Below are positions 10,621-50,894 of a DNA stretch of 64,000 nt, one piece after another. The position numbers and the translations under genes were made by a program. Positions within the stretch are counted from its first letter, which is position 1; every line of letters starts with the position of its first letter. Under the pieces are notes generated by a model that saw only the letters and a list, made by a program, of their open reading frames with translations, made no database searches and was not told the DNA's origin. Source of the DNA: Eledone cirrhosa. Its lineage: Eukaryota. Where the stretch lies: contig OZ024744.1 in NCBI GenBank assembly GCA_964016885.1, positions 32,612,001 through 32,676,000 of the forward strand. The letters are read 5' to 3'.

Positions 10621-10865
10621 ATATCTATCTCCATAATCTAGCTGTCGTCTGTTCTACAGTGTGGATGTCATTCACTTCGCACAGAAGTTTTGTTCAAATT
10701 TATTGAGGAAATTTCGTGAGTTCAAACTTAATTTTGATACAATTGTGTAGCTTGACCCTCCGTCTGAACTGTCAGGCGGTGGGTCAGCTCATCTTTACCC
10801 CTCCTAGAGGTGAAAAACCTGTTTTAAAAAATTTTGTGTAAAAAAATTTCAATCGTCTAACAGAA

Positions 10866-12766
10866 ATGTTAAACGCAGCGAACGAAAATAGTGGTGGGGG
10901 GACAGCGGTAAGAGTTGTAAGCTCGCACGCTTTAGTACCCCCTTCCTTCCCAACTAACGTCATAGAGAAGGAAGGAAAAATTAAAATAAAAACAGACGAA
11001 TCTGCGGAGAAAAAATTAAATGACGAAAACACAAATCTGGACTTGGATTCCAACAACGAAAAAAAAAAATTTGAAAAATTGCATGACAATACTAATAACA
11101 CAAACAAAGACACAACAAACACAAAAATAACAGTTGAAAATAACACCATATCAGAAAACAAAGCAGACGACAAGATTTCATTTGCACAGAAAACAAAGAA
11201 ATCTTTGACTTATATAGCGGAAAACATTTCAGATGTGGTACGAAGGATCACGGACGCCAAACAATACATAAGTGAAGGAGAGAATGGTATTTTATCGGTA
11301 AAAATGCCTCAAGAATTCACGAAAGACATTGAAAGCCGAACGGTCAAGTTTCGGACCATCAACAACAGTACCAAAAAACCTGAACAGCCTTCTCAAGCAG
11401 ATATCAAAACAGTACTCACAGAAGTACTTAATGAAACCACTTTCATAAGAAAAGACAGACTGTATGGAAGCCTAGCAATTATCATGAAGAACGAATCGGC
11501 GGCAAAAAAATGTGCTTTGTCACCGATTCGTTCGAAAAATTTCACCTTTTATCCATCTTATATGGGAAAAGAACTCAACGCATATGGCTGGATGCAATGA
11601 TGCCAGATGTGGACTACTGCTGGCTCATAGCTGGCTTCATCGATCCAGTGAATGACAACGTGATTTCCATTGGGAAAACCACAGGCAATGCGTTCAGTGG
11701 AACAGGTATAGAGCTGGTAGTACAAATGAAGCCTGAACGCATCGCCCAAATACCCGACAGAACCCTATTAGAGGACCACGGGTATATAAACATTAGCGTG
11801 GAGGGGAGAAGGCCGTCCTGCCATATCTGTGCAGGCAGAGGGCACCTGAAGGCCGCTTGTCCCCAACTCAACAAAAAGAAAACCCTGCTACCAACACCAG
11901 CTCCACCACCACCACCACAACAGATAAACAAACAACAAAACTCAGTCCCATCCAACCCGTCCCTCAGTAAAACCACAACACCACCACAACACAAACAGTC
12001 ACAACACATTACCCCAAAACAAAATACAGGCCCACCCAACCTCTCACTCAATAAAACAACACAACCACCGCAGACACAACACACAACACAGTCTAACATA
12101 GTGACATCCATTTCCCCCACAAAGAAAACCAACACGGAAACATTACCAGCAAACATACCTCTTCCCTCCAACACTGAAGATAACCCAACGAATTCGGAGG
12201 AAGAAACGGAGTCCTTCAGACAGATTAAAAGGAAAAAAAGAAAACATGTGCAAAACACACAAGGACAAACAACCCCCACCCAAATCTCAACACAGTCCAA
12301 CAAAACAGAAAACACCCCTCCAGCAACAAACAAAACCAAACCTGCCCCTCCCCTCTTCGAAACACTCACACCATCCGAAAAAAAGACATTACACTATACT
12401 TACATCAACAGAAACAATAATAAATTTAATGAGCTCATATACAATAATCCTTCGGTACAAACCGAAGGTGTAAACTTTGTTTCGTCAGAAAACTACCCAC
12501 ATTTAAAACTAATAAAGATCCCAATGAACCTCTACCAAAAACTAAAAAAGGATTTTAAGGAGGACGTAGGACCACCCTCTGTCAAACCCATAAACCGCGT
12601 CCTACTAAAAAGCTTTCCCCCTCCCCTTCCCCTCCCCAACACAACTCCAAACACCCCAACCCCACCACACACTGACGACCCCACACCACCACAAGACACC
12701 CCTTCACCCAACACCCCCGACCCCATGGAAGTCGTGCAACCCGAACCCCGGGAAGCGGAAAGGTAG
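10866..12766 (+). pseudogene. ORF1 nucleic-acid-binding protein with CCHC zinc knuckle; single frameshift near 11567
   Basis: ORFs 10866-11600 and 11510-12766 join at YMGK/RTQR (one A missing from an A-run). Knuckle CHICAGRGHLKAAC; homologous to ORF1 of units D, H, K. Confidence 0.85.
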
Positions 12767-12799
12767 GTCTCTACACTCTCCTTTGGCTCTGCCGCCCAC

Positions 12800-15700
12800 A
12801 TGGATGTGTTAAGAGTAGGATGTTTGAATGCACGTGGCCTGGGCTCAACTTGGAAGCAAGCAAAGCTTCTAAATGACCTCAGGTCATGTAGTATAAATGT
12901 AATGGTTATCTGTGAGACTCGAATCAGCGTCGTGCGGCAGCTGGCCCCCACCTTCGATGACTTTGAGGTGCATGCATCTCTCTGTCAACCTGGAGGTGGG
13001 GGTGGGGTTGTCGTACTGCTGCAAAAACACCTGGGTCTTGCCGTACAGGTTGTGCACTCGGACCCGGAGGGTCGTTTGTTGGTGCTAGACGTTGGCAGTA
13101 GTGAAAGTGCGGCCTTGAGACTGGTCGCCGTCTACTCCCCTTTCGGAGCTGAACGGCCCGACTTCTTCCAGCGTTTGGAGACTTTTCTGGGAACGTCGCG
13201 TTCCCTGCTTCTAGCGAGGGATTGGAATGACATCCTGGATGCACGTTGGGACTATGCAGGAGCATGTCCTAATAGAGGGGGGTGTAACAGCCTCAAGGGG
13301 TTACTCGACCGTTTTAACTTGGTCGATAGATATCGACTAGATTTTCCAACTGTGCCTACCTGGACTTGGAGAAACCACAGTGGTCAATCTAGATCGTACT
13401 TAGATAGATTCTTAGTTAGAAGTAAGGATAGGGACATATTAAGCACGGTTGGCTACACGGATCACAAATTAGTGACCTGCGTGGTCAATCTCGAGAAAAC
13501 ACATAGACAGGGTCCCGGTTACTGGAAACTTAATTTGTCTTTACCGGCAAAAGAGACTTACAGAAACCGGATTAGCAGATTAGTTAAGGAGAGGTTGACG
13601 GGTGCAATCGTCAACAACCGATGGTGGGCATCTCTCAAAAGAGAGATTAGAACAGAATCAATAAGTTATAGCAAGATGTTAGCTGCCGATAGGAATAGAA
13701 ACGAGAAAGAATTAAGAGGTAAATTAGAAGAGGCAATCAAGAGCGAAGATGTGGCCAGAGTGCTGGCATCGAGGACGGCCTTGAACCAGTTTTTCGATGC
13801 AAAGCACGAAGGCTGCGTCATCCGAAGTAAAATACGTGCTCTAGGTAATGAGGGGGCCAAAGCCGTTGGATGGGCCCGCGTGACAGAAGCTAAGAGTGGA
13901 AATCGATCCACCATCCGGTCGTTGCAAGACGAAGATGGACGGGTGATCCGGGAGCCTAAGCAAATGTGCGAGGCCTTTCAAAGGCACTTTGCCCGATTGT
14001 TCGGGGGAGGCGAGGGTCCGGGCGGGGGCGTGGATTTCGGTCCATACCTCGAAGGCCTGCCGCGTCTCTCGAACGAAGAGGCAGAGTCCTGCGAGGAACC
14101 AATATCGGCTGATGAGATCCGAGATGCGCTGAGCCAATGCAGCAGACGCAAATCTCCAGGTCTCGATGGTATACCTTACGAACTTTATTTAGCAATGCCG
14201 GTCTTCTTCTCCGAACTCCTCGAAGCGGTCTACTGCAATTGGCAGCAGAACGGGAGAATTCCTTGTTCTGTAGCCAAGGGCGTAGTCACGCTGGTGAGGA
14301 AGGACGAGAACAAGGGGGATAATATAAATAATTTTCGGCCCATAACCCTGCTAAACACAGAGTTAAAGATTTTGGCCAAGGTGTTAGCAAAGAGGTTGGC
14401 GCTTGTCGTGGGTGGCCTGGTGGGAGATGCGCAGACATGTGCTATCCCATCCAGGTCCATTCACGATAACCTCCACCTCATGCGATACATCATAGAGAGG
14501 GTTGGCAACAAACCCGGCTTCGGTGGGGCCCTGATAAACTTAGATCAGTCTAAGGCCTTCGATAGGGTCGACCATGGTTACCTGGATGCGGTGCTAGCGG
14601 CGGCTGGGTTCGGTCCTGTTTTCAGAGGCTGGATCAATGCCCTACATAGCAACCACATCTGTTCTAGGATCAAGGTGAACGGCTACCTTTCGAAGCCGTT
14701 CGAAATCACACGATCCATTCGACAGGGGTGCCCTCTCTCCTCCCTTCTGTACGTATTGACTCTCGAGCCTTTACTGAGGAAGTTGGAGTTGTTGCAGGGT
14801 ATCCCCCTGGAACCAGGATTGAGCAAAGCGGTGTCGGCCTACGCCGATGACGTAACAGTAATGGTATCAACCGACTCGGAGATCGAGGCGATCGGTACCT
14901 TACTGGAGGAGTACGAAAGGTTGTCAGGAGCGAAACTGAACCGGGAAAAATCCATCGGGCTGCAACTCGGAACGTGGAGAGGCAGACCGATGCCTCCTGA
15001 CGGTGTCGTCGGACACTGGACGGAGGGCCCGGTAAAGTTGGTTGGGGTCTGGTTTGGACCGGACCTCCAGGTGGAAAAGAACTGGAACGTGGTTACGAAC
15101 AAGGTGTTTGCACTAACCCAGAAATGGGCCAAGTGTAAGCTGTCCCTAAAAGGCCGGGCGGAGGTGGCGAACATTTACATAGCGTCCGTCACTTACTACC
15201 GCCTGACTGTCGTGCCTTGCCCTAAGGAAACACTCACCACCATGGAACGCATGCTCTTCCAATTTCTTTGGAAGAAGCGTCCTCCTATGGTGAGAAGATC
15301 CATCTGCTGCCAACAACCTTCGAAAGGAGGGCTGGGGATGCCGTGGTTGATGATGCGTAGGCACGCATTAAGGCTACGGCACCTACAGGTATTCCTCACT
15401 GGTCAACCGGTGTGGGCTCCGTTCGTGAAACGAGCCTTTCCGAGACTCGTCTCGCTCATTGAGCTACAGTCCTGGGTCAAGCAAAGATCCGGAAAACTGG
15501 GAGACTGGCACACTGAGTGTGCTCAGGCGCTCAGGGCTCTCTGGCAAGCGGGCCAGGCCATCGGTGGAGAATCCACCTCAACATTCTATAGAGGGCTGGT
15601 GGCTAGCAGGGGCGATGACACCCTTGGAGAGTCGCTGGACATAGAAGAAGACGAACTGGCCAGCCTGTTCGGTAGGACTTTCGGCCCAGGACCAATGGAC

Positions 15701-16222
15701 AACTTCCAGAAGTCACTGGCCTGGCAGTGCTACCGGGGGGCTCTACCCGTTCGAGAGAGGCTCTACAGACACGGGCGCCCGGGCAGGGATCCCTCAAAAA
15801 AGATTTGCCCTAGATGCGTGCGTCACGAAGAAACCGTTGCGCACGCATTGGTGCAATATCCGGGCGTGGCTGATCTGTGGGGCTACGCCGAACGACTGCT
15901 GTCGCGGGTGGCGCTGATTAAATTGACCGCCGAGTCCGTGATGACAATCAAACCGCCTCCCCTCTTCACAAAGGAAGCAAAGGCGGTTTTTCTGTGCGTA
16001 ATAGCCATGTTGAAAGAGGTTGTTTGGTGGACACGATTGAAAGGTCTGAGGTTAGGCAACTTCCTCTCTGGCCATAGTCTGGTCTACTTCTTCCGATATC
16101 ACTTCGGAAGAAGGATAAGAATGGAGGGAGAGGTGCTTGGCCACAGGCAGTTTTATGAAAGGTGGGTGATAGTGGCGAGAATGGCTCGTGTAAATGGGCC
16201 TTCTCTGTATACCATCCTGTAG
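12800..16222 (+). CDS. LINE ORF2 polyprotein, 1140 aa: APE endonuclease + reverse transcriptase + C-terminal zinc finger
   Basis: Uninterrupted ORF with LNARGL, ETR, DWN, SYLDRF, TDH, PGLDG, FRPITLLN, DQSKAFDRV, QGCPLS, YADD and CPRC..ETVAH. Has a small in-frame EN deletion, and the last zinc-finger Cys is Tyr. Confidence 0.95.
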   Translation: MDVLRVGCLNARGLGSTWKQAKLLNDLRSCSINVMVICETRISVVRQLAPTFDDFEVHASLCQPGGGGGVVVLLQKHLGLAVQVVHSDPEGRLLVLDVGSSESAALRLVAVYSPFGAERPDFFQRLETFLGTSRSLLLARDWNDILDARWDYAGACPNRGGCNSLKGLLDRFNLVDRYRLDFPTVPTWTWRNHSGQSRSYLDRFLVRSKDRDILSTVGYTDHKLVTCVVNLEKTHRQGPGYWKLNLSLPAKETYRNRISRLVKERLTGAIVNNRWWASLKREIRTESISYSKMLAADRNRNEKELRGKLEEAIKSEDVARVLASRTALNQFFDAKHEGCVIRSKIRALGNEGAKAVGWARVTEAKSGNRSTIRSLQDEDGRVIREPKQMCEAFQRHFARLFGGGEGPGGGVDFGPYLEGLPRLSNEEAESCEEPISADEIRDALSQCSRRKSPGLDGIPYELYLAMPVFFSELLEAVYCNWQQNGRIPCSVAKGVVTLVRKDENKGDNINNFRPITLLNTELKILAKVLAKRLALVVGGLVGDAQTCAIPSRSIHDNLHLMRYIIERVGNKPGFGGALINLDQSKAFDRVDHGYLDAVLAAAGFGPVFRGWINALHSNHICSRIKVNGYLSKPFEITRSIRQGCPLSSLLYVLTLEPLLRKLELLQGIPLEPGLSKAVSAYADDVTVMVSTDSEIEAIGTLLEEYERLSGAKLNREKSIGLQLGTWRGRPMPPDGVVGHWTEGPVKLVGVWFGPDLQVEKNWNVVTNKVFALTQKWAKCKLSLKGRAEVANIYIASVTYYRLTVVPCPKETLTTMERMLFQFLWKKRPPMVRRSICCQQPSKGGLGMPWLMMRRHALRLRHLQVFLTGQPVWAPFVKRAFPRLVSLIELQSWVKQRSGKLGDWHTECAQALRALWQAGQAIGGESTSTFYRGLVASRGDDTLGESLDIEEDELASLFGRTFGPGPMDNFQKSLAWQCYRGALPVRERLYRHGRPGRDPSKKICPRCVRHEETVAHALVQYPGVADLWGYAERLLSRVALIKLTAESVMTIKPPPLFTKEAKAVFLCVIAMLKEVVWWTRLKGLRLGNFLSGHSLVYFFRYHFGRRIRMEGEVLGHRQFYERWVIVARMARVNGPSLYTIL

Positions 16223-16464
16223 GTAAAGAAGTAAAGGAGAGGGGAGCACCTTCTCCATGTGCTCCCCGGGCAAAGGATTGCACACTTTTTCGGGGGTGTG
16301 TGCAACCCCCATCACGTCCCCTCCCTTTTGAGGTTATTTTCGATTATTTTCATGTTACACCCTTTTTACTCGATTATATGTAAACTCCCCCTTTGTATTT
16401 GTCCCTTCTTTTTATGCCTTTATGGTAAATAAAGAAATCTATCTATCTATCTATCTATCTATCT

Positions 16465-19400
16465 CCAAACTGTAGGGACACACGTGTGAAACTTGCTGGG
16501 TAAGTTCTGCTTAAATTTCTACAAAAAATCTTGACTGTGAGCCTTCATTTTTGTACCAATTTGTATAGGGACTGCCAGGTCAAATTTTGATCTGGTCAGT
16601 CTCTCAAAATATTCTACGCCATTAGGCGAAACAGTTCATGAAAATTTTTTGGGGAAAAACTAACGTTTTAAAAAATATGGCTGAAGTAACATCTTCTTCA
16701 CCAACATTCGAAGGAGGAAATGGGAAGGTATGCTTACAGCTTCCCTCTTCTACTGTCATAGTAGCAGATGTCTCAGTCAAAGGTCACAGAGAGGAAGGAT
16801 TTTCTCCACCTGCTGACCGACAACTTGTAGTTGCCATGGCAACAAACCAAAAACAAAAGTGTGAAACAATGAATAAAACAACACAACCGACACCACCAGC
16901 AACAACAACAATGCTATGAATGAAAACAACACCAACAACAACGAAGACAATACCAATAACAAGAACAACAAAAACAACAATTCCAGCACAAACGAAAACA
17001 GACAAAAAAAAAAAAACGTTTGCAGAAAGCCTTGCCAAAGAGACAGATTTTATAGAAATAAATCTGTCAAACCAAGCGCAGCACCTAAAGGACGCTGCTC
17101 AACATATAGCTTTAGAAGGTAACGGCTTTCGAATAAGTACCCCACCGGAAATTAGGGCCGCGACCTTAAGAAAAACAATTTTCTTCCGGAATACCTGCTC
17201 ACAAACCAAGAAACCGATGGCTTTAAGCAATAGCACGGTGGAAACCGCACTAAATGAGGCGATGCCAGACATGGCTTACCTCCAGAGGGCCAAGCAGTAC
17301 GGGAGCATCTCGGTGCTCTTTTAAAGCGAGGCCCTCGTCCAGAAATATTCGGTGGCTCCAATTAGAACGAGCCAACACATCTTCTGCCCAACATACATGG
17401 GAAGAAGAACACATAAAATAAGGATCTCCCAGATCCCACCGAACACCAACATTTGGTGGATCCTGGGTGGTTTTTTAGAGGAGGGTGAAGACAACCTCCC
17501 TCTCTGTAAAAAAATCAATCTGACAGAACTGCAGCGGGACCTCAATTGAGATTTTAGTTCAAATGAAACCGGAGAGAATTGAAAAATACCGGAAAGGGTG
17601 CCGGTGGATGATAACCATGTTGTCCTCATCGCAGTGGAGGGCAAAAGACCACAATGTTTCAAATGTGGAAAAAACACACATTTAAAAGCATTTTGCCCAA
17701 TGATGGATGTGGAAAAACAAAAGAAGGCGTTGTTGCCAACCCCAAAGCTACAACGGACACACCTAAAAACAAAAAAACACAACCCCCAAACCATCAATAT
17801 TCACCCATCACAAACCACAAAAGACACCACACCAAAAATTCCCCTCAAGGATTCTGTCCCACCCCTTCCCCCTCTGTCCAACACTCCCACAAACATACAC
17901 ACAACCACTCCACCACCACACAACATACCCCTCCCACATACCCACAATGATAACACCTCAGACACGGGAACCTCAACATCTCCAAGTGAGGACGAAGAGG
18001 AACCCCCAAAATCAAAGAAGCAAAAAAGAGACAGAAAAAATACAACCAAACCATCAATTGAAAACACGCACAGACCCAACACTGACATAAACATACCGCC
18101 ACAAACGACAACCACACCAACAACACAACCAGACACTCCACCAACAACACAACCAGACACTCCACCAACAACACAACCAGACACTCTACCAACAAAAAAA
18201 ACACCCACACCACCACAATCACAAACCCGAACCACTAAAAGAAAACTACAAACAGAAACAGTATACATAAAAAACAAAACACATTACATATACATAAAAA
18301 CAAGACACAAAGAACTGGTCGAAACTGTCCGAAAGGACGCCACAATACAAACGGAAGGGAAAAATTTCCCCACCAACGACCCACCCCAAACCTCAAACTT
18401 ATCAGGGTAACAACCGTACAGTACGAAACTTTAAAAGCGAACTTCCCACATGATGTGCCCCCCCCCCTCCAAAAACCCCTTAACCGTGTCCTGCTAAAAG
18501 GATTCCCTCCTTCCCAAAACACCCCCAATTTGGACATGGAGATCCAATAACCCGACCTCCAGGAAACAAAATGGTAAGTGTTCCTGCCTTTTCTCTCCTT
18601 AACTCTTCTTCACCAACATGGCGACTATACAAGCTGGATGTTTGAATATACGTGGCCTGGGCATGCCCTGGAAACAGGGCCAGCTTTTAAATGATCTCAG
18701 GTCACATTGTATAGATGTGATAGCCATCACCGAGTCCAGAATTCACAACAAGCAGCAGCTAACCCTCGTGTTCGATTATTTTGAGATCTACGCATCTCTC
18801 TGTCAGCCAGGAGGTGGAGGGGGAGTTACTGTTCTGTTTCGAAAAACTTGGATCTCTAAGTACTGACGATTCACTTGGACCCGGAAGGCAGCCTAGTGGT
18901 CCTGGACGTGAATGGTAGTGAAGGTAGAGCTTTCAGACTGGTGGCCGTATATGACCCGACCCGGACATCGCAACCAAGTTCTTGAAGCGTCTGGAGCCAT
19001 TCTTGGGAACGTCTCGCTCCTTAGTGTTAGCGGGGGACTGGAATCGCATTTTAGACGCACGTTGGGACTATGTAGGAGCTTGTGATAATAGAGGTGGGTG
19101 TAAAAGCCTCAAAAATCTCATCAGCCAATTCCAACTGGCTGATAGATATCGACTAGACTTCCCACGTGGAGCAACCGCACTGGGTCTTCTAGATCATATT
19201 TAGATAGATTTTTAATTAGACAGAATGATAAGGAAACATTAAACTGTTCGCAAATGCACATGGTTGCCTATTCAGACCACAAAATAGTCACCTGCATAGT
19301 CAACCTTGATGGAACACAAAGACAGCGACCCGGATACTGGAAGCTAAACATGGCGCTCCCGGCGCGAAAGGCCTACAGTAAACGGATTAGCACCTTAGTT

Positions 19401-21818: not shown

Positions 21819-21838
21819 TATCTATCTATCTATCTATC

Positions 21839-23251
21839 GAGGGTCAAGGTGCTACCTATCGGGGCCGTTCGCAATCACGCGTTCCATTCGACAGGGGTGC
21901 CCTCTCTCCTCCATTATGTATTTATTGACTCTAGAGCCACTACTGCGGAAATTGGAGCTGTTGCAGGGCATCCCTCTAGAACCGGGACTACGCAAAGCGG
22001 CGTCGGCTTATGTCGACGACGTGACGGTAATGGTGTCGGGCCCCTCGGAAATCGGGGTGATCGGCAACTTACTGAAAGAATACGAAACGCTGACTGGAGC
22101 AAAACTAAACCCGGACAAGTCTGTCTATATCTATCTATCTATCCATTTCTCTCTTTATCTATCTATACCGCTTGACGGACGTGCTTTGACCCGTGATCAC
22201 CTCGCCAAAATGGAACGGCTACTGTGCCAGTTTCTTTCGAAGAAACAAGCTCCATTAGTGAGGAGATCCATCTTCTGCCAACACCCTCTAACGGAGGGCT
22301 TGGTATGCCGTGACTGATTATGCGCAAACACGCGATGAGGCTACGGCATCTCCAGGTGTTCCTGACTGGTGAACCAGTGTGGTTGTCGTTTGAGAGACGA
22401 GCATTTCCACAACTAGTCTCGCTAACGGAGTTGCAGTCCTGGGTCAAGCGAAGACCGAAAATGGACGCCTGGCAACCTTGTGTGCGCTCAGACGCTCACA
22501 GCCCTCTACCAAGTGAAAAAAAGCAATCACCGGAGACTCCACGTCAACATTCTGTAGGAGGTTAGTGGTGGATAAGTGCAACGACTTTCTTGGGGAGACT
22601 CTGGGCGCCGAAGAGGATGAACTGTCCAGTCTATTCGGACGGACTTTCCGACCAGGCCCTATGGATAACTTCAAGAGGTCTCTGGCCTGGGAGTGCTACC
22701 GAAGAGCTCTGCCAGTTTGAGACAAGATCTACAGGCACGGACGCTCTGGCAGGGATCCTGCTAAAAGGACCTGTCCAAGATGCGAGCGAGACATTAAAAC
22801 CGTTCTGCACGGAATTGTTCAGTGCCCAGAAGTGACCGACCTGTGGAATTATGTCGAACAGCTACTGTCACGTGTGTGACACATCCAGTTGTCAGCCGAT
22901 TCCATCGTGAGGATCAACCCACCGCCTTCATTTAACAATGAAGGAGAGGAGGTTTTCCTCTGGCTGGTGGCTATGGCGAAAGAGATAATATTGTTGACGA
23001 AGTTGAAAGGACTGAAAAACACCTTCCTCTCTGGACAACAACTCAGTCCCTTCTTTATAAAACATGCTCCTGGAGTTGAGGGTTGTTCTCTCTACGGGGT
23101 GTAAATCAATCCAGTTGTACGTTCCCCCTGTTGGCGATTTCGATTGTTCTTTAATTATTTGATAACTGTTAAAACAAGCTTAAATGTAAAATCTCCGCCA
23201 TACGTCCTGTAATGTCCCATTTCTTGTGCGTCCTTGTGGCAAATAAAGAAA
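21839..23251 (+). mobile_element. Tx1-type LINE unit E, 5'-truncated and decayed
   Basis: RT to 3' UTR remnants; AATAAA at 23242-23247; ATCT-like tracts on both sides and internally at ~22125-22168. Confidence 0.88.
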
Positions 23252-23307
23252 CCTATCCCTCTCTTTCTATCTCTCCCTTTCTCTATCTATCTATCTAGCT
23301 ATCTATA

Positions 23308-24896
23308 CTCCATTCTGTACGTACTGACTCTAGAGCCACTACTGCGGAAGTTGGAGCTGCTGTAGGGCATCCCGTCGGAAATCGGGTCGATCGGCAACTT
23401 ACTGCAGCAATACGAAAGGTTGACAGGAGCAAAACTAAACCTGGACAAGTCTGTCGGTTTGCAGCTCGGAACGTGGAGTGGCAAACCGATGCCGTCCGAC
23501 AGTGTTGTCGGACGCTGGACAGAAGGACCGGTGAAATTGCTCGGGGCCTGGTTTGGTCCAGACCTCCAGGTGGAGAAAAACTGGAACGAGGTCACGGCCA
23601 AGATATTTGCGCTCACCCAGAAGTGGGCAGAGTGCAAACTATCCTTGAAAGGTCGAGCGGACGTGGCGAACACTTTCAAAGCGTTCGTCATCTACTATCG
23701 CTTGACCGTCGTGCCTTGTCCCCGTGAATACCTCACCAAGATGGAACGCATGCTGTTCCACTGGTGAGTAGATCTGTCTGCTGTCAGCACCCTTCCAACG
23801 GAGGGCTGGGAATGCCGAGGCTTATGATGCGCAAACATACGCTGAGGCTACGGCATCTACAGGTATTCCTCACCGACCCCCAACCGGTGTGAGCACCGTT
23901 TGTGAGACAGGCCTTCCCGCAACTTGTCTCGCTGACGGAGCTGCAGTCCTGGGTCAAGGGGAGACCGAAGAGATGGGCGCCTGGCACATTGAATGCGCTC
24001 AGGCTCTCACAGTCCTCTGGCAAGCGGCCACAGCAATCAGTGGAGACTCCACTTCGACATTCTATAGAAGGTTAGTACGTCACAAGGGCGACGACGTGCT
24101 CGGAGAGACTCTAGGCGTCGAAGACGACGAACTCACCAGTCCGTTGGGTAGGACTTTCCGCCCGGGACCTATGGACAACTAGCGAGGAGCTCTACCGGTT
24201 CGTGACAAGATCAACAGGCATGGACGCCTCGGCAGGGATCCTTCCAAGAAGATGTGTCCAAGATGCGAGCAGGACATTGAAACAGTCTTGCACGCAATTG
24301 TACACTACCCGGGCGTAATCGACCTGTGGAAATACGTAGAACAACTGCTGTCGCGTATGGGACAAATGCAGTTGACTGCCGAGTCCATAGTAAGGATCAA
24401 ACCGCCAACTTCTTTCAAAAACGAAAGAGAGGCGGTTTTCCTCTGTATAGTGGTTATATAGTGAACGAGACTGAGAGGACTGAGGACAGATGCCTTTCTC
24501 TCCGGACAACAACTCATTCCCTTCTTTAGGTACCACTTTAGAAGGAGAATCAGAGTGGCGAGAGAGGCACTGTACCACAGTAAAATTACTGAAAGGTGGA
24601 TGAATGTGTCAAAATTGGCCCCAGTGATTAGGCCTTCTCTGTACATAAACCTGTAGGTTAAAAAAGAGAACAAAAGGAAGAAAGGTGCACTTGCACAACA
24701 CGCTCCTGAAGTTGAGGGTTGTTCTATCTACGGGGTATTAAACAGCCCATTTGCAGCGCCCTCCACCCCACCCCATTGGGGATTTCGATTGTTATATTTG
24801 TTTATTTCATATTTTTACACGATTGTATGTAAAATCCCCCGGCATGTGTCTTTGTTTTGTCCCCTTTTCTTGTGCGCCCTTGTGGCTAATAAAGAA
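23308..24896 (+). mobile_element. Tx1-type LINE unit F, 5'-truncated and decayed
   Basis: GLQLGTW...GPDLQVEKNW remnants, stop TAG 24654-24656, AATAAA at 24888-24893, (ATCT)n at 24897-24974. Confidence 0.9.
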
Positions 24897-26599: not shown

Positions 26600-29500
26600 G
26601 CCTGTCGCGTGGAACATCACCGGTAAGATTTTTTGTAAATTTATATACGAAAAACAGAACAAATTGTTTGAAAAAACATATTATTTTGTAGATTAACCCC
26701 CAACCTGAATTGTCAGACGGGTGGTAATCCCCTTTAGGGGCGAAAATTTAATTTAAATATTGTTTTATATTATCAAATTTTGTCAACTATAAAACATGAA
26801 TAACAAGACAAGAACGCTGGTGAACGTCGACAGAGAAAAGAAAGAGAAAGAGGCAGATTTTAACGTTATATCTGCTTCTGTTACTATGGACGTCGCAATA
26901 GATACGACTGTCAACAAAGGGAAAAAAATATTGCCACTTGAAGATTGTACAATTTCTACCGTCGAAGCGGAGAAAAATGAAAACACAGGAATTAAACCCA
27001 TTAACATACATACACATGAAAAAAACAACATCAACAACTCCACAGGTACATCTACACATAAAGTTTCACCTCGTCAAGGAACTGAGATTTCCAACACCGA
27101 GGCTAACTACAATAACAACAACAACAAAAGCAACACCACACAAAAAAAATGTCTTTCGTTGAAACAGTGAACAAAAAACAAGATTTTATAAATCTTGACA
27201 TCTCCAATGCAAGAGATATGCTCCAGCAAGGGAGGAAATTTGTAACTTTCGAAGAGAAGGGTGGGTTTAGAAATGACTCACCCCTCGAAATAAAAGAAGA
27301 GACAGTTCAAAGGACAGTGACCTTTAGGACTGTATCCAATACCACGAGAAAGCCGATATTTGTTAGTTAAGGAGATATAGTAGATAACTTGAAGGAAATT
27401 CTTGCAAATATCGACTTTCTCCAACGAGAAAACAGTACGGAAGTGTTTCCGTACTGTTTAAAAGTGAAGCACTCGCCCCAAAACATTCTGTGACACCAAT
27501 GGTGTCAAAAGCATTCACATTTTTCCCTACATACATGGGAAAATGGACACAAAAAATAAAAATAAATATATACCACCAAACATTAACATCTGATATGATT
27601 CTTTCGATACGAAAGTCTATTAGACAAAGGTGGGCGGGTACTGATTTGGAGTTTCTGTTGCAAATGAGGCCGGAGAGAATCTCCAAAATACCCGAAAAAG
27701 TCGTCATCGACGACAACAACAAAATGAACATTTCGGTAGAAAGACGAACATTTCATTGCTTTCGCTGTAGTAGCACAACACACCTAAAATCCTCCTGCCC
27801 TTCACAAACACACCACAACAACATCATTAAAAAAACACTATTACCAACACCAACACCAAAACAACCACCACCACTAAAAGTACAACAACAAACGAAACTA
27901 GCAAACACACCAAAACAAACAACCACTCAACCAACAACAACAGAAACAACAGAGACAACACCCCTGAAGAACACAGCCCCACCCCATCCCACTCCATCAA
28001 ACACTACCACAAACACACACCGAAACACCACCACCACACAACATACCCCTACCCCACACGCCTTATGATGATTATTCATCGACGGATGAAGCTGCTTCTC
28101 CTTCTTTAAGTGAAGAAGAGGGAGAGCCGCGGAAATCTAAAAAACAAAAAAGAGACACCACAAACCCCCCAAAACTCCAATCACCAACCCCAACACACAA
28201 CCACAGACACAAACAACAACACAAACAACACCACAGTCAAACATCCCCCTACCAGCAAAACCAACACCGACACCACCCCAAACGCAAGCACCCACCATAA
28301 AAAGAAAACTCACGGACGAACAACACAAAAAAAAACAAACAACAATACGCATACATCAACACAAACAACAAGAGTTTGATGGAGGTCATCTCCCAAAACC
28401 CAAAGTGGAGACGGAGGGAAAACTTTCGTCAAAGCAGAATCGTCTCCACACCTAAAACTAATAAGGGTTTCGATAGAAATCTATCAGAAATTGAAAGAAC
28501 AATTTTCGCAGGATGTTGGCAACCCCTGTCAAAAACCTATTAACCGCGTCTTATTAAAATGTTTCCCCATCCAACCCAATACCCCTACCAGAACTGAAAT
28601 AGAGATTGAACAACCCGATCTCCAGGAAACGAAAAGGTAAGTGCACCTTTTCGTCCTTTTCGCCCTTTTCGCCAACTCTTCTCCACCAACATGGCTAGTT
28701 TACGAGTTGGAAGCGTGAATGTACGTGGCCTAGGGATGCCCTGGAAAAAGGGCCAACTTTTAAACGACCTTAGGTCACACGGTATGGATGTGATAGCCGT
28801 CACCGAGTCCAGGATCCACAACAGGCAGCAACTAACCCCCATCTTCGACAACTTTGAGATCTACGCATCTTTCTGTCAGCCAGGAGGTGTAGGGGGAGTG
28901 GTTGTCATGTTTCGGAAGAACCTGGACGTTGAAGTACAGCAAGTACACTTAGACCCGGAGGGTAGACTGGTAGTCCTAGACGTGAACAGTATCGGAGGTG
29001 GAGCCTTCAGACTGGTGGCCGTTTATGCTCCGACCGAGCAATCGCAATCACGGCCAGACTTCTTTAAGCGTATAGAATCTTTTCTGGGAACATCTCGCTC
29101 CTTACTTTAGTGGGGGACTGGAATGGTATCCTAGATGCACGATGGGACTATGTGGGAGTAGAGGGGGGTGCAACAGCCTCAAAACTTTAATCGGCCAATT
29201 CCAACTGGCCGATAGGTATCGATGGATTTCCCGACTGCACCACAGTGGACGTGGGCAAACCGCAGCGGGACATCTAGATCGTATTTAGATAGGTTCTTCA
29301 TTAGAGAGAGGGACAAGGAGATGTTAAGCTGTCCACGAATGCACATGGTTGCCTATTCAGATCACAAATTAGTCGTCTGCTTAGTCAACCGTGATGGAAC
29401 ACATAGACAAGGATCCGAACTCTGGAAGCTGAACGTGTCGTTGCCGGCACGTAAAGCTTACAGTGAACGGATAGAATCGATAGGGTATAGCAGAGAGTTA

Positions 29501-32230
29501 ACCTTAGAGAAAAACAGAATAGAAAGAGAACTAGTAGCCAAGGTAGAGGAGGCACTTAGAAGTGGCAATGCGACTAGAGTGTTAGCGTTGAGAACGGCAC
29601 TGGACCAGTTCTTTGATGCGAAATACGAAGGCATACGGTCAGAAGCAAAACACGTGCTCTAGGAAACAAAGGAGCGAAAGCTGTCAGCTGGGCCCGGGTG
29701 AGAGAGGCAAAAAGTGGCAACATGTACACGATTCGGACTTTGAAAGACCAAAACGGACGCGTATTACTTGACCCCAAGCAAATGTGCGCGGCCTGTCAGC
29801 AGCACTTTGCGCGACTGTTTGAGCAGAACGACGGTAAGCCGAACGTGGTAATGGACTTTAGTTTATACCTCGACGGCCCGCCGCGTCTCTCGAACACGGA
29901 CACCGAGTTCTGCGAAAGACCGATCACGTACACTGAAATTCGGGACGCTCTGGGCCGATGCGTGAAACGCAAATCACCAGGTCTAGATGGTCTACCCTAT
30001 GAGTTTTACATAGGCATAGCGTACTTGTTCTCTGGCGTCCTCGAAGACGTCTACTGCAATTGGCAGTAGAACGGGTGAATTTCCAGTTCTGCAGGCAAGG
30101 GCGTAGTAACGCTGATAAGGTAAGACGAGATCAAGGGGGTCGAAATTAACAACTTCAGGCCCATAACTCTGCTCAACACAGAGTTAAAGATTTTGGCCAA
30201 GGTGCTAGCGACGAGGTTGGCGCTTGTCGTCGAGAACCTAGTGGGGAAAGCGCAAACGTGTGCAATGCCGACCAGGTCTATACACGACAATCTCCACCTC
30301 ATGCGATACATCATAGAGAGGGTGGGTAGTAAACCCGGCTTCGGTGGGGCTCTGATCTATTTGGATCAGTCTAAGGCATTTGATAGGGTCGACAATCGAT
30401 ACTTGGAAGAGGTTCTCAAGGCGGCCGGCTTCGGTCCCGTTTTCAGAGGCTGGATCGAGGCGATGCACCCGAGCATCTGCTCAGGGGTCAAGGTGAACGG
30501 CTAACTATCGGAGCCGTTCGCAATCACGCGTTCCATTCGACAGGGATGCCGTCTCTCCTCCATTCTGTATGTATTGACTCTAGAGCCACTACTGCGGAAA
30601 TAGCAGCTGTTGTAGTGCATACCTCAAGAACCAGGACTGCGCAAAGCGGCGTCGGCTTATGCCGAGGTCGTGACTGCAATGGTGTCGATCACCTCGGAAA
30701 TCGGGGTGATCGGCAACTCACTGAAAGAATACGAAACGCTGACGGGAGCAAAATTAAACCCGGGAAAGTCTGTCGGTTTGCAACTCGGTACGTGGAGAGG
30801 AAAACCGATGATGTCCGACAGCGTCGTTGGGCGCTGGACGGACGGACCGGTAAAATTGCTCGGGGTCTGGTTCGGTCCAGACCTCCAGGTGGAGAAAACC
30901 TTAAACCAAGTCAGGGCCAATGTGTTTGCGCTCACCCAGAAGTGGGCAGAGTGCAAACTGGCCTTGAATGGTCGGGCGGAGGTGGAGAACACTTTCATAG
31001 CATCCTTCATCTACTACCGCTTGACTGTTGTGCCTTGTCCCCGTGAACACCTCGCCAAGATGGAACGCATGCTTTCTGTGGAAGTAGCAGGCTCCACTAG
31101 TGAGTAGATCCGTCTTCTGTCAGCATCTTTCCAACGGAGGGCTGGGAATGCTGTGGCTGATGATGTGGCATCTACAGGTATTCCTCACCGACCCCCAACC
31201 GGTGTGGGCACCGTTTGTGAGAGAGGCTTTCCGACAGCTCATCTCGCTGACGGAGCTGCAGTCCTGGGTCAATAAAAGACCGAAAACGATGGGCGCCTGG
31301 CACATTGAATGCGCTCAGGCGCTCACAGTCCTCTGGCAAGCGGGTGCAGCAATCAGTGGAGACTCCATTTCGACATTCTATAGAGGGATTGTACGTTACA
31401 AGGGTGACGACGTGCTCGGTGAGACTCTAGGCGTCGACGACGATGAGCTCACCAGTCTATTTGGTAGGACTTTCCGCCCGGGACCTATGGACAACTTCCA
31501 GAGCAGTGCTACCGAGGAGCTCTACATGTTCGTGACAAATCTACAGGCACAGACGCCCCGGCAGAGATCCTTCCAAGAGGACGTGTCCAAGATGTGCGCA
31601 GGACATTGAAACAGTCCTACACGCAATTGTACACTGCCCGGGCGTAACCAACATGTGGAACTATGCAGAACAACTGCTGTCGCGTATGGGACAAATCCAG
31701 TTGACTGCCAAGTCCATAGTAAGTATCAAACCGCCAGCCTCTTTCAAAAACGAAAGAGATGCGGTTTTCCTCTGTACGGTGGCTATGGTGAAAGAATATG
31801 GTGGACGAGATTGAGAGAACTGAGGACAGATGCCTTTCTCTCTGGACAACAACTCATTCCCTTCTTTAAGTATCACTTCAGAAGAAGAATCAGAGGGGAG
31901 AGAGAAGCACTGCACCCCAGTAAATTTACTGAAAGGTAGGTGAATGTGGCAAAAATGGCCCGAGTGATTGGGCTTTCTCTGTATATAAGCCTGTAGGTTG
32001 AAAAGGAGAGAGAAAGGAAGAAAGGGGCACTTGCACAACACGCTCCTGGAGTTGAGGGTTGTTCTATCGACGGGGTATTAAACAACCCATTTGTGGCGCT
32101 TCACCCCTTTTGGGTATTTCGATTGTTGTAATTGTTTGTTTTTATATTTTTTACACGACTGTATGTAAATTCCCCGGCATGTCTTTGTATTGTCCTCTTT
32201 TCTTATGTGCCCTTGTGGCAAATAAAGAAA
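26600..32230 (+). mobile_element. Tx1-type LINE unit H, full length, decayed
   Basis: ORF1 remnants 26796-28640 (CFRCSSTTHLKSSC), ORF2 remnants 28691-31996, AATAAA at 32221-32226, ATCT tract. Confidence 0.92.
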
Positions 32231-34067: not shown

Positions 34068-37000
34068 ATTTCTTTATTAGCCACAAGGGCACAAAAGAAG
34101 TGGTCAAATACAAATGGGGAGTTTACATACAGGTATATGAAAGTAAAACTATTAATAAAATAACAAATAACAATTGATATCCCCAATAGGAGGGAGGCGT
34201 TACACAGGGGTTGTACACACCCCGAAAAAATGTACAACCCTCATCTCCAGGAGCACCAAGAGTGAGTACTCCCTTCCTCTCTTCCTCTTTTTCCTCAACC
34301 TACAGGCTTATATAGAGAGAAGGCCAAACCACTCGGGCCATCTTTGCCACATTCACCTACCTTTTATAAAATTTGCTGGAGTACAGCACCTCTCTCTCCA
34401 TCCTGATTTTTCTTCCAAAATGATATTTGAAAAAACGAATCAGTTGCTCGCCGGAGAGAAAGGTGTCTGACCTCAGCCCTTTTAACCTCGTCCACCATAT
34501 AACCTCTTTCACCATAGCCATAACACATAGGAAAACTACCTCTCCCTCGTTTTTGAAGGAGTGTGGCGGTTTGATCATGGCAATGGACTCGGTGGTCAAC
34601 TGGATTGGTCCCACAATAGTCGTTCTACATAGCCCCACAGGTCGGTAACCCCCGGGCAGTATACAAATTCGTGCGCAACGGTTTCCTCGTCGCGCACGCA
34701 TCTCGGACAGATCTTTTTCGAAGGGTCCCTTCCAAGGCGCCCGTGTCTGTAGAGCTTGTCTCGAACTGGTAGAGCTCCTCGGTAGCACTGCAAGGCCAGG
34801 GACGTTTGGAAGTTGTCCATTGGTCCCGAGCGGAAGTTCCTACCGAACAGACTGGCCAGTTCGTCCTCCTCTAAGCCTAGAGTTTCTCCGAGCGTGTCGT
34901 CGCACTTGCTGCGGACCAACCCTCTATATAATGTCGAAGTGGAGTCTCCACTGATCGCCGGGTCCGTTAGCCAGAGGACTGTGAGCGCCTGAGCACATTC
35001 GATGTGCCAGTCGCCCATTTTCCTCGACCCAGGACCGCAGCTCGGTCAGCGAGACAGGTCGTGCGAAGGCTCGCCTCTCGAACGGGGCCCACACCGGTTG
35101 TCTGGTGAGGAATACGTGGAGGTGCCGCAGCCTGAGTGCGTGTTTGAGCATCGTCAGCCACGGCATCCCCAGCCCTCCGTTTGAAGGGTGTTGGAAGCAG
35201 ATGGATCTTCTCACCAAAGGAGCCCGTTTCTTCCAAAGGAATTGGAAGAGCGCGCGCTCCATTTTGGTGAGCGTTTTGGCTGGACAAGGCACGACGGTCA
35301 AACGGTAGTAGATGAGCAGCTTGACCGGTCCTTCCGTCCAGCGTCCGACGACGCCATCGGAAGGCATCGGTCTGCCTCTCCATGTTCCGAGTTGCAAACC
35401 GACGGATTTGTCCCGGTTCAGCTTCGCTCCTGTGAACCTTTCGTATTTCCCCAGTAAGGTGCTGATCTCCCCGATTTGCGAGGTGCTCAACACCATTACT
35501 GTCACGTCATCGGCGTAGGCCGACGCCGCTTTTCGTAGTCCCGGTTCCAAAGCGATGCCCTGCAATAGCTCCAACTTCCGCAGTAGTGGCTCGAGAGTCA
35601 GTACGTACAGAAGGGAGAAGAGAGGGCATCCCTGTCGGATGGATCGCGTGATATGGAACGGCTCCGAGAGGTAGCCATTCACCTTGACCCTTGAGCAGAT
35701 GTTGCTGCTGTGGATTGCAGCAATCCAGCCCCTGCAAACGGGTCCGAAGCCTGCCGCCTCGAGCACAGAATCCAGGTAACCATGGTCAACACTATCGAAA
35801 GCCTTATACTGATTCAAGTTGATCTGGGCCCCACCGAAGCCGGGTTTACACCCTACTCTCTCTATGATGTATCGCATGAGGTGGAGGTTGTCGTGTATGG
35901 ACCTGGTCGGGATTGTGCATGTCTGCGCTTCTCCCACCAGGTTTTCGACGACAAGCGCCAGCCTCTTTGCCAACACCTTGGCCAAAATCTGTAACTCTGT
36001 GTTGAGCAGAGTTATGGGCCGGAAGTTGCCTATGTCATCCCCCTTGTTCTCGTCCTTCCTGACTAACGTGATTACGCCCTTGGTCACAGAACTGGGAATT
36101 CTCCCGTTCTGCTGACAATCGCAGTAGACCGCTTCCAGGAGACCGGAGAACAAGTCCGGCATTGCTACGTAAAATTCGTAGGGTAGACCGTCGAGACCTG
36201 GAGATTTCCGTTTGCCGCATTGGCTCAGCGCGTCCCCTATCTTAGCGGCCGAAATCGGCCTTTCGCAGAACTTCGCCTCGCTGTCCGAGAGTTGCGGTAG
36301 GCCGTCGAGGTATAGACCGAAATCCATAGCCCCTCCAGGCGCGCCGCCCTGCCCTAACCGTTGAGCAAAGTGCCGCTGAAAGGCCGCGCACATTTGCTTC
36401 GGCTCACATATGACGCGTCCGTCTTGGTCCTTCAAAGACCGAATCGTGGACTTGTTGCCACTTTTCGCCTCCGTCACTCGGGCCCAGCTAACAGCTTTGG
36501 CTCCCTCGTTTCCCAGAGCACGTATTTTGCTTCTGGCAACGCAGCCTTCATGCCTTGCGTCGAAGAACTGGTCCAAGGCCGTTCTCGTCACTAGCACGCT
36601 GGCTACGTTGCCACTCCTAAGTGCCTTTTCTACTTTATCTACCAGTTCCTTTTCGGTCTTATTTCTATCTAACGCTAATTCTTTACTAAACCTATCGAGT
36701 CTAATCTAACTGCTCTCTTGAGAGAGTACCACCATCTGTTGTTAACAATGGCCCCCGTCAAGTGCTGCTTAACTAAAGTGCTAATCCGTCTACTGTAGGC
36801 TTTGCATGTCGGTAACGACAAGTTCAGCTTCAAGTCGCCGGGTCCCTGTTTATGGGTTTTGTCAAGGTTTACTAAGCAGGTCACTAATTTGTAATCTGAA
36901 TAGGCAACCATGAACATTTGTGGACAGCTTAACATGTCCCTATCCTTCTTTCTAACTAGAACCCTATCTAGGTACGATCTAGATGTTCCGCTACGATTAG

Positions 37001-39680
37001 TCCACATCCACAGTGGCACAGTCGGAAAATCTAGTCGATATCTATCGGCCAGGTCAGATTTGTCGATTAACTGTTTGAGGCTGTTACACCCCCCTTTATC
37101 GGGACATGCTCCCACATAGTCCCAACGTGCATCTAGGATTCCATTCCAGTCCCCCACTAAAAGCAAGGAGCGGGACGTTCCCAGAAAAGTCTCTAGACGT
37201 TTGAAGAAGTCTGGCCGTGGTGTCCCGGATGGGGCACTAGCCTCAAGGCTCCACCTTCACTACCGTCAACGTCTAGGACCACCAGTCGACCCTCCGGGTC
37301 CAGATGTACCGTCTGTGTTACGAGGTCCAGGTGTTTTCGCAGCAAAACGGCAACCCCACCCCCACCCCACGGCTGACAGAGAGATGCGTAGATCGCAAAT
37401 CCGTCGAAGATGGGAGCCAGTTGCCGCTCGCTGTGGATCCTGGACTCGCAAATGGCTACTACATCCATACTGTGCGACCTGAGGTCGTTTAAGAGATTGC
37501 CCTTTTTCCAGGGCATCCCCAGGCCGCGTACATTCACACATCCAACTCTTATATTGGCCATGTTGGTGCTGAAAATTCAAAAGAAGAGGAAAAGAAATCA
37601 CTCACCTCTTCGTCTCATGGGGACCAGGCTGCACAATTTCCATGGGGCTGTTGGAGGGTTTGTTTGGTGAGGTGGTGGTCTCTGGCGGGGTGGGGACGGA
37701 GATGTTTGGTGGGGAGGGGGTGTCTGGAGCGGGGGTGGGGAAACATTTCAAAAAGATGCGGTTATAGGGTTTGACGCAGGGGTTACCTACGTCGTTAGGA
37801 AATTTTTCTTTTAACTGTTTATGTGTGTCCATGGAGATCCTAATCATTTTAAGATCAGGATTCTCCGAAGAGTGTGTAAAAGTTTTACCTTCGGTCTCCA
37901 CCGTAGGGTTTTTATATATGGTGTCTGTTAAAGTTTTATTGTTAGTATTTATGTAGGTGTGACATTTTTGTTGTGTTGCTTTTTTTCTGTGGTTCTTGTG
38001 TGTGTTTACGTTTTGTTGTAGGTGTTTTGTTTTCAGGAGGAGGTGTTTTTGTTTGTGCTGTTTGTGTCGCTTGTATTGGTGTTTGTGTGTTTGTTGCATT
38101 TTTGTTTGTGTTATGTCTTTTCTTTTTTTCTTTTTACTGGTCGGAAAGGCTCTCACTCATCGTCACTGGGTGACGATGATGAGGCCTCATCCGTCTCGTT
38201 GGGGAGGGGTATATTTTTGGGAGCTGTTATGTGTGTGTGTGATTCTGGAGTTGTTTTAGGTGGAGAGTGTTTGGGTGGGACTGTGTTTGCAGTTTGGTTT
38301 GTTTTTGTGTGTTGTTGTTGTTGTTGTTGTTGTGGTGGTGGTGGTGGTTGTGTTGGGTGTCGGCAGTAGTGCCTTTTTTTTAATGCAGTTAATTGAGGAC
38401 AGGAAGCCCTCAGGTGACCACTGCTTAAACAGTGATAACATGAAGGCCGCCTACCCTCAACAGAAATGTTTATGTAGGAATTTCCATCCAGAGGCACACG
38501 TTGTGGTATTCTAGCTATCCGTTCTGGTCTCATTTGGACCAGAACTTCTAAGCTTGTACCGTTGAATATGCCCCTGGAGGACTTTCCTACCGAAATTACT
38601 GTATCTTCATCAAAATTGATGAAACCAGCTAATATCCACCAGATGTTTACATTTGGTGTGATATTTTTTACTTTTATTTTTTGGGTCCTTTTTCCCATGT
38701 ATCTGGGGAAAATTGTGTAGAGGGGGGGGGGGGGGGATACAATTGGCGACACAGAATATTTCTGTGCCGTCAATTGGTCTTTCATTATTATTGATAAACT
38801 CCCGAAGAGTTTTCCCTTCTGTATGCAGGTAATGTCCTTCATGGAGTTTCTTAGAACCAGCTCAATTCCATTTTGAGTTAATTGAACTGGTTTTCTGGTC
38901 GTATTTGAGATTGTCCTAAAAACTATGGTTTTCAGGACAGTGTCTCTACGCAATTATTGGGGAGAAGTGATGCTAAAAGCGCCATTCTCACCAAAAGTTA
39001 TATATTGCTTGGCATCTCTTAGCAATTCTCCGGCATTAGAGATGTCAATCTGTGTATATAGTTCTGTATTTTGGACAGTTTGTGCAAACGAAACCTTTTT
39101 CCTTGTTTGTGGAGTTGTTCTTATTAGTGTTGTTGTCATTATTGTCGCTGTTGTTGGTGTTGTTGTCATCATTGTTGCTGTTGTTGTCATTGTTGTTGTA
39201 GTTCTCAATTGCTTCATCTGTGGTTGCGGAATTCATTTGTGAAGTTGTATTTTCGTTTTTAGCATTGTTGTTATTGTTGTTGCTGGTGCCGCTGGTTGTG
39301 TTGTTTTGGTTTGTTGCCATGGCAACGTCAAGTTGTCGATCAGCAGGTGGAGAAAATCCTTCCTCTGGCTGACCTTTGTCTTTGACATCTGCTACTATGA
39401 CAGTGGTAGGGAGAAGCTGTAAGCATATCTTCCCCTTTCCTCCTTCGAATGTTGGTGAAGAAGCTTCAGCCATTTTTTTTAAATGTTAGCTTTTCCAAAA
39501 AAAACATTTTATGCACTATTTCGCCTAAAGGCGTAGAATATTTTGAGAGACTGACCAGATCAAAATTTGACCTGGCAGTCCCTCTACAAATTCGTACAAA
39601 AATGAAGGTTCACAGTTAAGAATTTCTATAGAAATTTAGGCAGAACTTACCCAGCAAGTTTCACGCGTGTGTCCATCCCA
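34068..39680 (-). mobile_element. Tx1-type LINE unit K, full length, decayed
   Basis: ORF1 remnants 39473-37602 (CYHCLSSGHLRASC), ORF2 remnants 37561-34300 including a 557-aa RT frame, AATAAA at 34073-34078, (AGAT)n on both sides. Confidence 0.93.
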
Positions 39681-40495
39681 GATATAGATAGATAGAGAGA
39701 TATACACACACGCGTGTGGTTTGGTCACAATTGGGTTATCATTCGATTTTGAGAACACAGGGAGAGAGAGAAAGAGAGCCGTGTCGGATGCATACCAAAT
39801 GTTCTTTTCTTAATATTTCATGACACGTAATTCCACTATATTTTATTTTAACGAATGAAAAATAAAAACTTATTTCGTAACGTCTCTACGTTTCCATATT
39901 TATTTTATACTAAAATTAACATTTATTTATCTTTCGGGGCAAGATATCTAAACTATGATAAAGGAGTGCGGGACTGCGTACAGTTTATTTTTTTAATCCA
40001 GTTAGTTGGATTACTTTGAATAACTAATGAATGAATTTATGTACTAAATTTCGTAAATATAAATAATTTAAAATTGACTTCTTTTCAAAGTTTCAAATTT
40101 CTACACTTCCGGTACATCGTCGCCACCACCACCACTTCAACTACCATATATATAGAAAGAGAGAGTTTGTGATGAGAGAGATATAGTGATTATGATTTTC
40201 TACCCGCTGACGCGTATGCTTGTGCACGCAAACAAACTTATAAAAATACACGCTGACGGACATAGAATCAGATAAATACACATATACATTTACACAAACA
40301 CACATTCACACATACATTTACACAAACACACACATACAGTCATCATAGCAGCGTTCAGTGAATTGGAAATGGGAGGGTAAAAACAAGTATAACGCTTTAT
40401 TTAATTAACACAGTTTAACTCTTTTTTTTTAAACTCATTTGTATAAAAATTGTATATAATGATTACAGAACGATAACACTAACAAATATAATATA

Positions 40496-50737: not shown

Positions 50738-50809
<72 letters not shown>

Positions 50810-50894
50810 TCTGAATTTGTTTAGCAAGATTCTTTATCTGAAATCGTGTGTTGAAACCGATATTGTTATACTTTGGGAGGGTCATGTTGCCCAT

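Follow-up and report, generated by a model that had tools for sequence, protein, structure and literature searches.

The window, that is, the whole stretch of 64,000 nt analysed here, lies within the 3.0-Gb genome of Eledone cirrhosa and contains LINE copies arranged head to tail, among which unit C is full-length and comprises the following features:

10636 to 16436 (approximately), forward strand: unit C, a full-length L1/Tx1-type LINE of a young family with 1,191 3′ ends genome-wide
10866 to 12766, forward strand: ORF1, with a CCHC knuckle, frameshifted in unit C and open from 11435
12800 to 16222, forward strand: ORF2, specifying an endonuclease and a reverse transcriptase (1140 aa) and forming the loop of a predicted helix
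16428 to 16464, forward strand: AATAAA and the (ATCT)n tail/target

The product of ORF1 is 633 aa in length in intact copies of the C family, and the two ORFs of unit C are separated by a spacer of 33 nt. ORF2 matches the Pfam family RVT_1 and, at a score under the curated threshold, Exo_endo_phos, and its nearest solved structure is that of human L1 ORF2p (E 6e-48, residues 8-850), R2 being far weaker. The translation of the separate ORF1 contains a CCHC knuckle (C-x2-C-x4-H-x4-C), and profile and homolog searches returned neither a Pfam family nor a homolog for this protein. On sequence grounds, unit C is an ordinary L1/Tx1-type LINE, with an APE endonuclease followed by a reverse transcriptase in ORF2 and a separate, CCHC-bearing ORF1. 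ATCT units occur at most 45 nt from the 5′ end in 16 of the 17 C copies and are also present in the tails; such ATCT-adjacent insertion is compatible with the Tx1 group, a placement which is based on target and ORF layout.

Elsewhere in the window, the end of ORF2 is missing from the unit at 21837-23312. A 410-bp repeat is present as inverted copies of 87% identity at 16444-16852, directly after the tail of unit C, and at 39304-39702. The minus strand carries a weak reverse transcriptase match belonging to another element (50808-51965) and a gag-type aspartyl protease match (57485-58180), and from these matches both are decayed retroelement pieces. In sequencing run X1, contig depth at 10824-11211 was far above that of the rest of unit C, unlike in run X2, contig depth being a poor measure.

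A preliminary description of this DNA had placed a 5′ splice-donor consensus over the ORF1 stop of units C, D, H and K, and all four donors are present in the sequence with a pyrimidine-rich spacer next to them. Those of units C and D (a slash marks the splice boundary) are:

12760 to 12768, forward strand: donor AAG/GTAGGT over the ORF1 stop of unit C (GT at 12763)
18571 to 18579, forward strand: donor ATG/GTAAGT at the ORF1 stop of unit D (GT at 18574)

The donors of units H (AAG/GTAAGT, GT at 28637) and K (GAG/GTGAGT, 37605, minus strand) likewise overlap the stop. Genome-wide, 4,631 copies have the ORF1-end motif followed by GTRRGT, and in a listing blind to the donor it was present in 94 of the first 100 of 4,677 matches. 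Thirty-seven full-length copies were paired at both ends, and 14 family representatives with 68-84% ORF2 identity to C were compared. G/GTRRG is found in all 14 families, in two codon phases. Within the donor, -1G, +1G, +2T and +5G are invariant, +6T is kept in 13 of the 14 families and +3/+4 vary among purines only, as compared to invariance at 23 of 114 four-fold sites in the same families. In three families the donor is in phase 1 and the ORF1 stop is located at +6 to +8; since the donor is kept there while the stop has shifted, its presence does not simply follow from the stop codon.

Splice-site scores were calculated using approximate animal frequencies, which were not fitted to E. cirrhosa. 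When both proposed sites were scored in this way across families, as had been suggested, 13 of the 15 family representatives had the donor in one of the top two places among their 233-317 GT sites, while only 1-2 of approximately 190 stop-like triplets per element stand in such a donor context. The donor context at the ORF1 stop thus exceeds chance, and the donor looks selected. As it is conserved in two phases and as genomic copies are joined exactly there (see below), it is probably a working 5′ splice site, and we consider it very likely to be functional. Among 24 distant metagenome L1-clade elements with a recognisable ORF1 (80 loci fetched), none reaches a donor score of 5 at the ORF1 stop (best 4.7), and the donor is therefore not general to L1-like elements. 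L238, a distant metagenome L1-like element, has G/GTGAGTAA at its ORF1 stop in a layout as in the phase-1 families (score 4.7).

Further donor-like sites were noted. The TAA and EQGK families (L151-L168, L161) contain a second perfect donor approximately 271 nt into ORF2, and donor-like sites recur across families at about 16161 (some 61 nt before the ORF2 stop) and at 15290 (some 2,500 nt into ORF2), the latter directly after an acceptor-like site; these two recurrent sites are probably protein-constrained. A mini-intron fusing ORF1 and ORF2 in frame was considered and rejected: it is out of frame in the three phase-1 families, its AG is missing in H, it would measure 42 nt in the B, PDT and PVS families, and none was found among the 91 listed joins in which the ORF1 end is not followed by G.

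The preliminary description had paired this donor with an acceptor at the ORF2 stop, so that all of ORF2 would be removed to leave an ORF1-only mRNA. Joining 12762 to 16223 of unit C in silico does yield E-R-stop, as it had claimed. Its observation that every ORF2 end is TAG, mostly TAG-G, is correct for the window, where all ten ORF2 ends located are TAG and nine of these are followed by G, and does not extend to the genome, since a sister family with 4,413 3′ ends has TAA/A and retains a perfect donor. TAG is found in 13 of the 14 families and in four further 3′-end types; of 31 two-fold purine synonymous sites, 13 are conserved to the former degree, so that by this comparison TAG is kept no better than synonymous sites. 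For two outgroup 3′-end types, only two of 20 upstream stretches reached the ORF2 start, too few to use. The pyrimidine run at the ORF2 end, which had been read as an acceptor tract, is explained by the encoded peptide in all eight families tested (P 0.15-0.88).

Ranking of AG sites placed the one at the ORF2 stop at 2-8 of approximately 260 in 11 of the 15 representatives, and an additional AG is present 6-8 nt upstream of it in B, H and K. The in-silico spliced product of the 13 AG-bearing families stops within one codon in seven, gains three residues in one and gains 18-41 residues in five. The match between product frame and donor phase is not significant (34 of 286 permutations). In each of the three phase-1 families, however, the AG is followed by a stop in the frame that matches, which counts against the masking model presented below because it is predicted by splicing of the whole ORF2 and not by masking. 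Taken on sequence, the ORF2-stop AG is poorly supported as the partner of the donor.

The reverse possibility, that TAG-G at the ORF2 stop acts as a donor, was rejected as a score of at least 4.9 was reached in only four of the 15 representatives. A local hairpin is predicted at 16172-16208, in the last ORF2 codons, where it pairs the pyrimidine run read earlier as an acceptor tract, and its sequence is kept across families. In the TAA family (among L151-L168, L161), a strong acceptor-like site lies approximately 160 nt from the start of the 3′ UTR, and the tail is (ATT)n rather than (ATCT)n.

The two ends of ORF2 are, moreover, predicted to pair with each other over a distance of 3.4 kb, with arms as follows:

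12763 to 12805, forward strand: predicted left arm, unit C (donor, pyrimidine spacer, ORF2 AUG)
16215 to 16254, forward strand: predicted right arm, unit C (last ORF2 codons, TAG/G with the proposed acceptor at 16220-16223, purine-rich 3′ UTR start)
16241 to 16267, forward strand: predicted local 3′ UTR hairpin, unit C, competing for the bases facing the donor
28634 to 28693, forward strand: left arm, unit H (donor, spacer, AUG), duplex of -45.2 kcal/mol with its own 3′ arm
31990 to 32040, forward strand: right arm, unit H (ORF2 stop and 3′ UTR start)
37559 to 37608, minus strand: left arm, unit K (donor, spacer, AUG), duplex of -39.8 kcal/mol
34260 to 34306, minus strand: right arm, unit K (ORF2 stop and 3′ UTR start, with a perfect donor complement)

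In all 14 families, the spacer between donor +1 and the ORF2 AUG can form a duplex with the ORF2 stop and some 40 nt downstream of it, and at most seven of 200 shuffled 3′ arms per family paired as well. Mean duplex energy is -32.0 kcal/mol with the arm of the own family versus -25.7 kcal/mol with those of other families, a difference equalled by none of 20,000 permutations across the 14 families; when row and column effects were removed, none of 50,000 permutations matched own-family pairing. In an exact test, the true pairing was the best of 362,880 permutations for nine deep lineages and the best of 120 for five. No ORF2 window pairs as well as the 3′ arm in 26 of the 37 full-length copies, and the sense strand outpairs the antisense strand in 12 of the 14 families. 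Spacers differ in sequence and in length (28-47 nt) between families and pair with bulges and G-U pairs. The weakest helices are those of B (-21 kcal/mol) and PDT (-20 kcal/mol), whose own partners rank tenth and eighth of 14, respectively. Cofolds of all 14 families have arms that end at the AUG and the ORF2 stop, and because they run through the AUG on one side and through the last ORF2 codons on the other, ORF2 constitutes the loop of the helix. Folding of whole 3.7-kb sequences recovered the helix in two of three cases (C and K2) and not in the TAA representative; the TAA family possesses the arm complementarity, without the AG. We regard the predicted family-specific helix itself as very likely.

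The helix covers zero to six bases of donor +1 to +6, and at least three in 12 of the 14 families. The bases facing the donor change along with it, being perfectly complementary in K, forming wobbles in H, EQGK and TAA, and being mismatched in C and PEGK; in unit C they overlap the local hairpin. Since these partner bases drift while the donor does not, pairing alone does not fix the donor. The helix explains the pyrimidine spacer, the TAG-GT context and the purine-rich beginning of the 3′ UTR with no need for an acceptor, and pairing of the arms is retained in the family that has no AG.

Use of the donor may be recorded in the genome itself. The ORF1 end is not followed by G in 91 copies, and in 12 of these a K-type ORF1 extends precisely to donor -1 and is there joined to the final 23 nt of a PDT/B-type ORF1, which lie directly after a CAG and from which the copy runs on through the PDT/B-type donor and ORF2. 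Four of the 12 contain a second exact join, to sequence after a CAG located 75 nt before the B-type donor. Both join types are out of register and are thus unlike homologous recombination. In control searches, 12 copies with a displaced donor comprised nine with the first join and three local duplications, and only two copies had a doubled ORF1-end motif 51-81 nt apart, both representing the second join; neither search (displaced donors, doubled ORF1-end motifs) revealed chimeras of the same kind with other breakpoints. The 12 joined copies form one ORF2 clade with modest support, and each join type probably arose once. The acceptor of the first join has a poor pyrimidine tract (score -4.6). 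Joins of the SpIRE kind, which lead precisely from donor -1 to sequence following an acceptor AG, are represented by 12 and four copies, and we infer that both derive from spliced read-through RNA of tandem arrays which was copied back by the downstream ORF2. SVA_F1 is reportedly another case in which spliced RNA has returned to the genome as copies joined precisely from donor to acceptor.

The chimeric subfamily of 12 copies (L206-L217, e.g. G000:C1:425440900-425447500) combines a K-type or B-type ORF1 with a PDT/B ORF2, and the join shifts the ORF1 frame at the C-terminus. Joins at or near the donor in L202, L203, L204/L205 and L218 were left out of the splice-like counts, as they lack an AG, are one base off or are microhomology deletions. 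Background breakpoints in the TAA family are spread across donor +1 to +20, and no copy was found in which the donor of this family is joined to the strong acceptor-like site in its own 3′ UTR.

The genome search that the preliminary description had proposed, for retrotransposed copies lacking exactly ORF2, found no copy joining the donor to the ORF2 stop, versus 4,631 unspliced junctions and 1,191 intact C ends. This negative is weak: by cis preference, established for L1, LINE proteins act mainly on their own encoding RNA, and a transcript devoid of ORF2 would seldom be reverse-transcribed. A homolog search identified no ORF1 homologs with spliced C-termini. Six runs contain the stretch, none of them listed as RNA. 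Contigs of four of these six on 10630-16436 did not contain the 12762-16223 joint among the 15 of 81 joints listed, while one X1 contig bridges the proposed acceptor unspliced and one X5 contig bridges the donor; as the runs may be of DNA and rare forms are lost from contigs, these count neither way. The donor half of the proposed ORF1-only mRNA is supported by conservation and joined copies, while the acceptor half is unsupported as the reason for the conservation, in view of the TAA family, of a TAG conserved at synonymous level and of a helix that explains its context. Excision of the whole of ORF2 to produce an ORF1-only mRNA, possibly as regulated splicing, is possible but less likely than not.

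The reading that we favour, although we would stop just short of calling it probable, is a combined model in which the predicted helix, on completion of the 3′ end, hides a U1 site and also gates ORF2. U1 snRNP would bind the donor during ORF2 transcription, and bound U1 would protect the transcript from early 3′-end formation. ORF1 contains many AAUAAA/AUUAAA hexamers; as the poly(A) hexamers are mostly located 5′ of the donor and are scarce in ORF2, such protection would have to act on upstream sites, a point against the model. U1 protection of upstream sites is known from the HIV-1 major donor. A dual role of U1 has a precedent in Arabidopsis EVD, in which U1 binding is described as both initiating splicing and blocking early termination (PMC5580714), and by analogy might apply to this donor. 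On emergence of the 3′ UTR, the helix would cover the donor, the ORF2 AUG and TAG-G together, and the masked donor would keep the finished transcript unspliced. Ribosomes terminating ORF1 or ORF2 would then open the helix, rendering the AUG accessible and permitting the local 3′ UTR hairpin to fold. Splicing from the donor would represent a leak, occurring when head-to-tail read-through RNA joins the donor to the next element, and TAG-G(T) would be kept mainly as pairing partner of the bases before the AUG and not as an acceptor. The model is further opposed by the failure of the TAA representative to form the helix when folded whole, by the weak helices of B and PDT, by the partial cover of donor +1 to +6, and by the probable single origin of each join type and the poor tract of the first.

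It is also possible, if doubtful, that the donor is indeed spliced to the ORF2-stop AG and that the helix competes with the spliceosome and so sets the fraction of spliced ORF1-only mRNA. A strong donor always directly before the ORF1 stop, the high rank of the AG, products that stop within one codon in seven of 13 families (all three phase-1 families included), the TAG of four more 3′-end types, the use of the donor at least twice, and the Drosophila copia intron which spans all of pol (PMC5580714) are consistent with this possibility; it is opposed by the retention of the donor in the TAA family without the AG, the synonymous-level conservation of TAG, the extra AG in B, H and K, the 18-41 residue tails in five families, the non-significant frame match and, weakly in view of cis preference, the absence of ORF2-less copies. 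A switch in which a covarying helix over both splice sites and the ORF2 AUG chooses between spliced ORF1-only mRNA and full-length template, with leaks creating chimeric lineages in tandem arrays, would have to be viewed with similar reserve. We regard it as improbable that the helix is purely a translation and RNP-assembly switch, which would hide the AUG until ORF1 ribosomes open it and hold the ORF2 stop beside the start, the donor look-alike being a by-product of stop and pairing: the arms do end at AUG and stop, and SART1 coupling needs downstream structure while looping has been raised for L1 (PMC5972666), yet the donor survives the stop-codon shift in three families, is kept better than its pairing partner and is the site of exact joins. 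Very improbable, in our view, is an absence of function, with shared ancestry and DNA-level homogenisation of two short inverted repeats during reverse transcription accounting for the pattern. The single common ancestor of all families, the lack of a donor scoring at least 5 in the 24 distant elements and the background of small deletions at and near the donor would fit such an explanation, but spacers vary in length and sequence and pairing nevertheless tracks the family with bulges and G-U pairs, the sense strand being favoured in 12 of 14.

Bicistronic LINE RNAs give rise to far more ORF1p than ORF2p and escape splicing. Under either the masking model or whole-ORF2 splicing, a covarying helix ending at the ORF2 start and stop over a conserved donor would offer a testable mechanism for this, while the splice-joined copies point to exchange of ORF1 between LINE families without homologous recombination.

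Several of the components are already known: copia-type LTR elements use subgenomic splicing, human L1 has produced spliced retrocopies (PMC5860796) and translation of ORF2 depends on RNA structure in SART1 (PMC5972666). The open literature searched, to the exclusion of subscription papers and Repbase, contained no LINE whose ORF1 stop coincides with a donor or whose ORF2 is enclosed by a helix. Kibi and Koshi belong to the Tx1 group of L1-like non-LTR retrotransposons (PMC4494074), and active 'L1-Tx1' families are described from Octopus vulgaris (PMC13282606). Unit C shares with the Tx1 group two ORFs, a CCHC ORF1, an endonuclease-RT ORF2 and microsatellite insertion (PMC4494074); its target is (ATCT)n, and the literature searched contained no Tx1 donor at the ORF1 stop or ORF2 helix.

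Drosophila copia and the gag RNA of plant Ty1/copia elements resemble the present case in that a strong donor is conserved where their structural-protein gene ends (PMC5580714). They are LTR elements with one ORF whose spliced RNA has been shown (PMC5580714), whereas the element studied here has two ORFs, one large family has no acceptor, and both sites are predicted to be covered by a helix; a conserved acceptor after the enzyme gene is not found here, as it is absent from the 4,413-copy TAA family and displays no excess conservation elsewhere. In Drosophila TART, likewise a LINE in head-to-tail arrays, the subfamilies have also retained splice sites, but the introns occur in antisense transcripts of UTRs (PMC1636488). 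Human L1 SpIREs are spliced RNAs copied back with exact donor-acceptor joins, their donors being located in the 5′ UTR and the join within one element (PMC5860796), whereas here the donor is at the ORF1 end and ORF1 and ORF2 of two families are joined. Finally, termination-reinitiation in SART1/L1 similarly ties structure near the ORF1/ORF2 junction to ORF2 translation; in SART1 this structure is a local one, located 3′ of the overlapping stop and start codons (PMC5972666), while the partner predicted here is 3.4 kb away, at the ORF2 stop.
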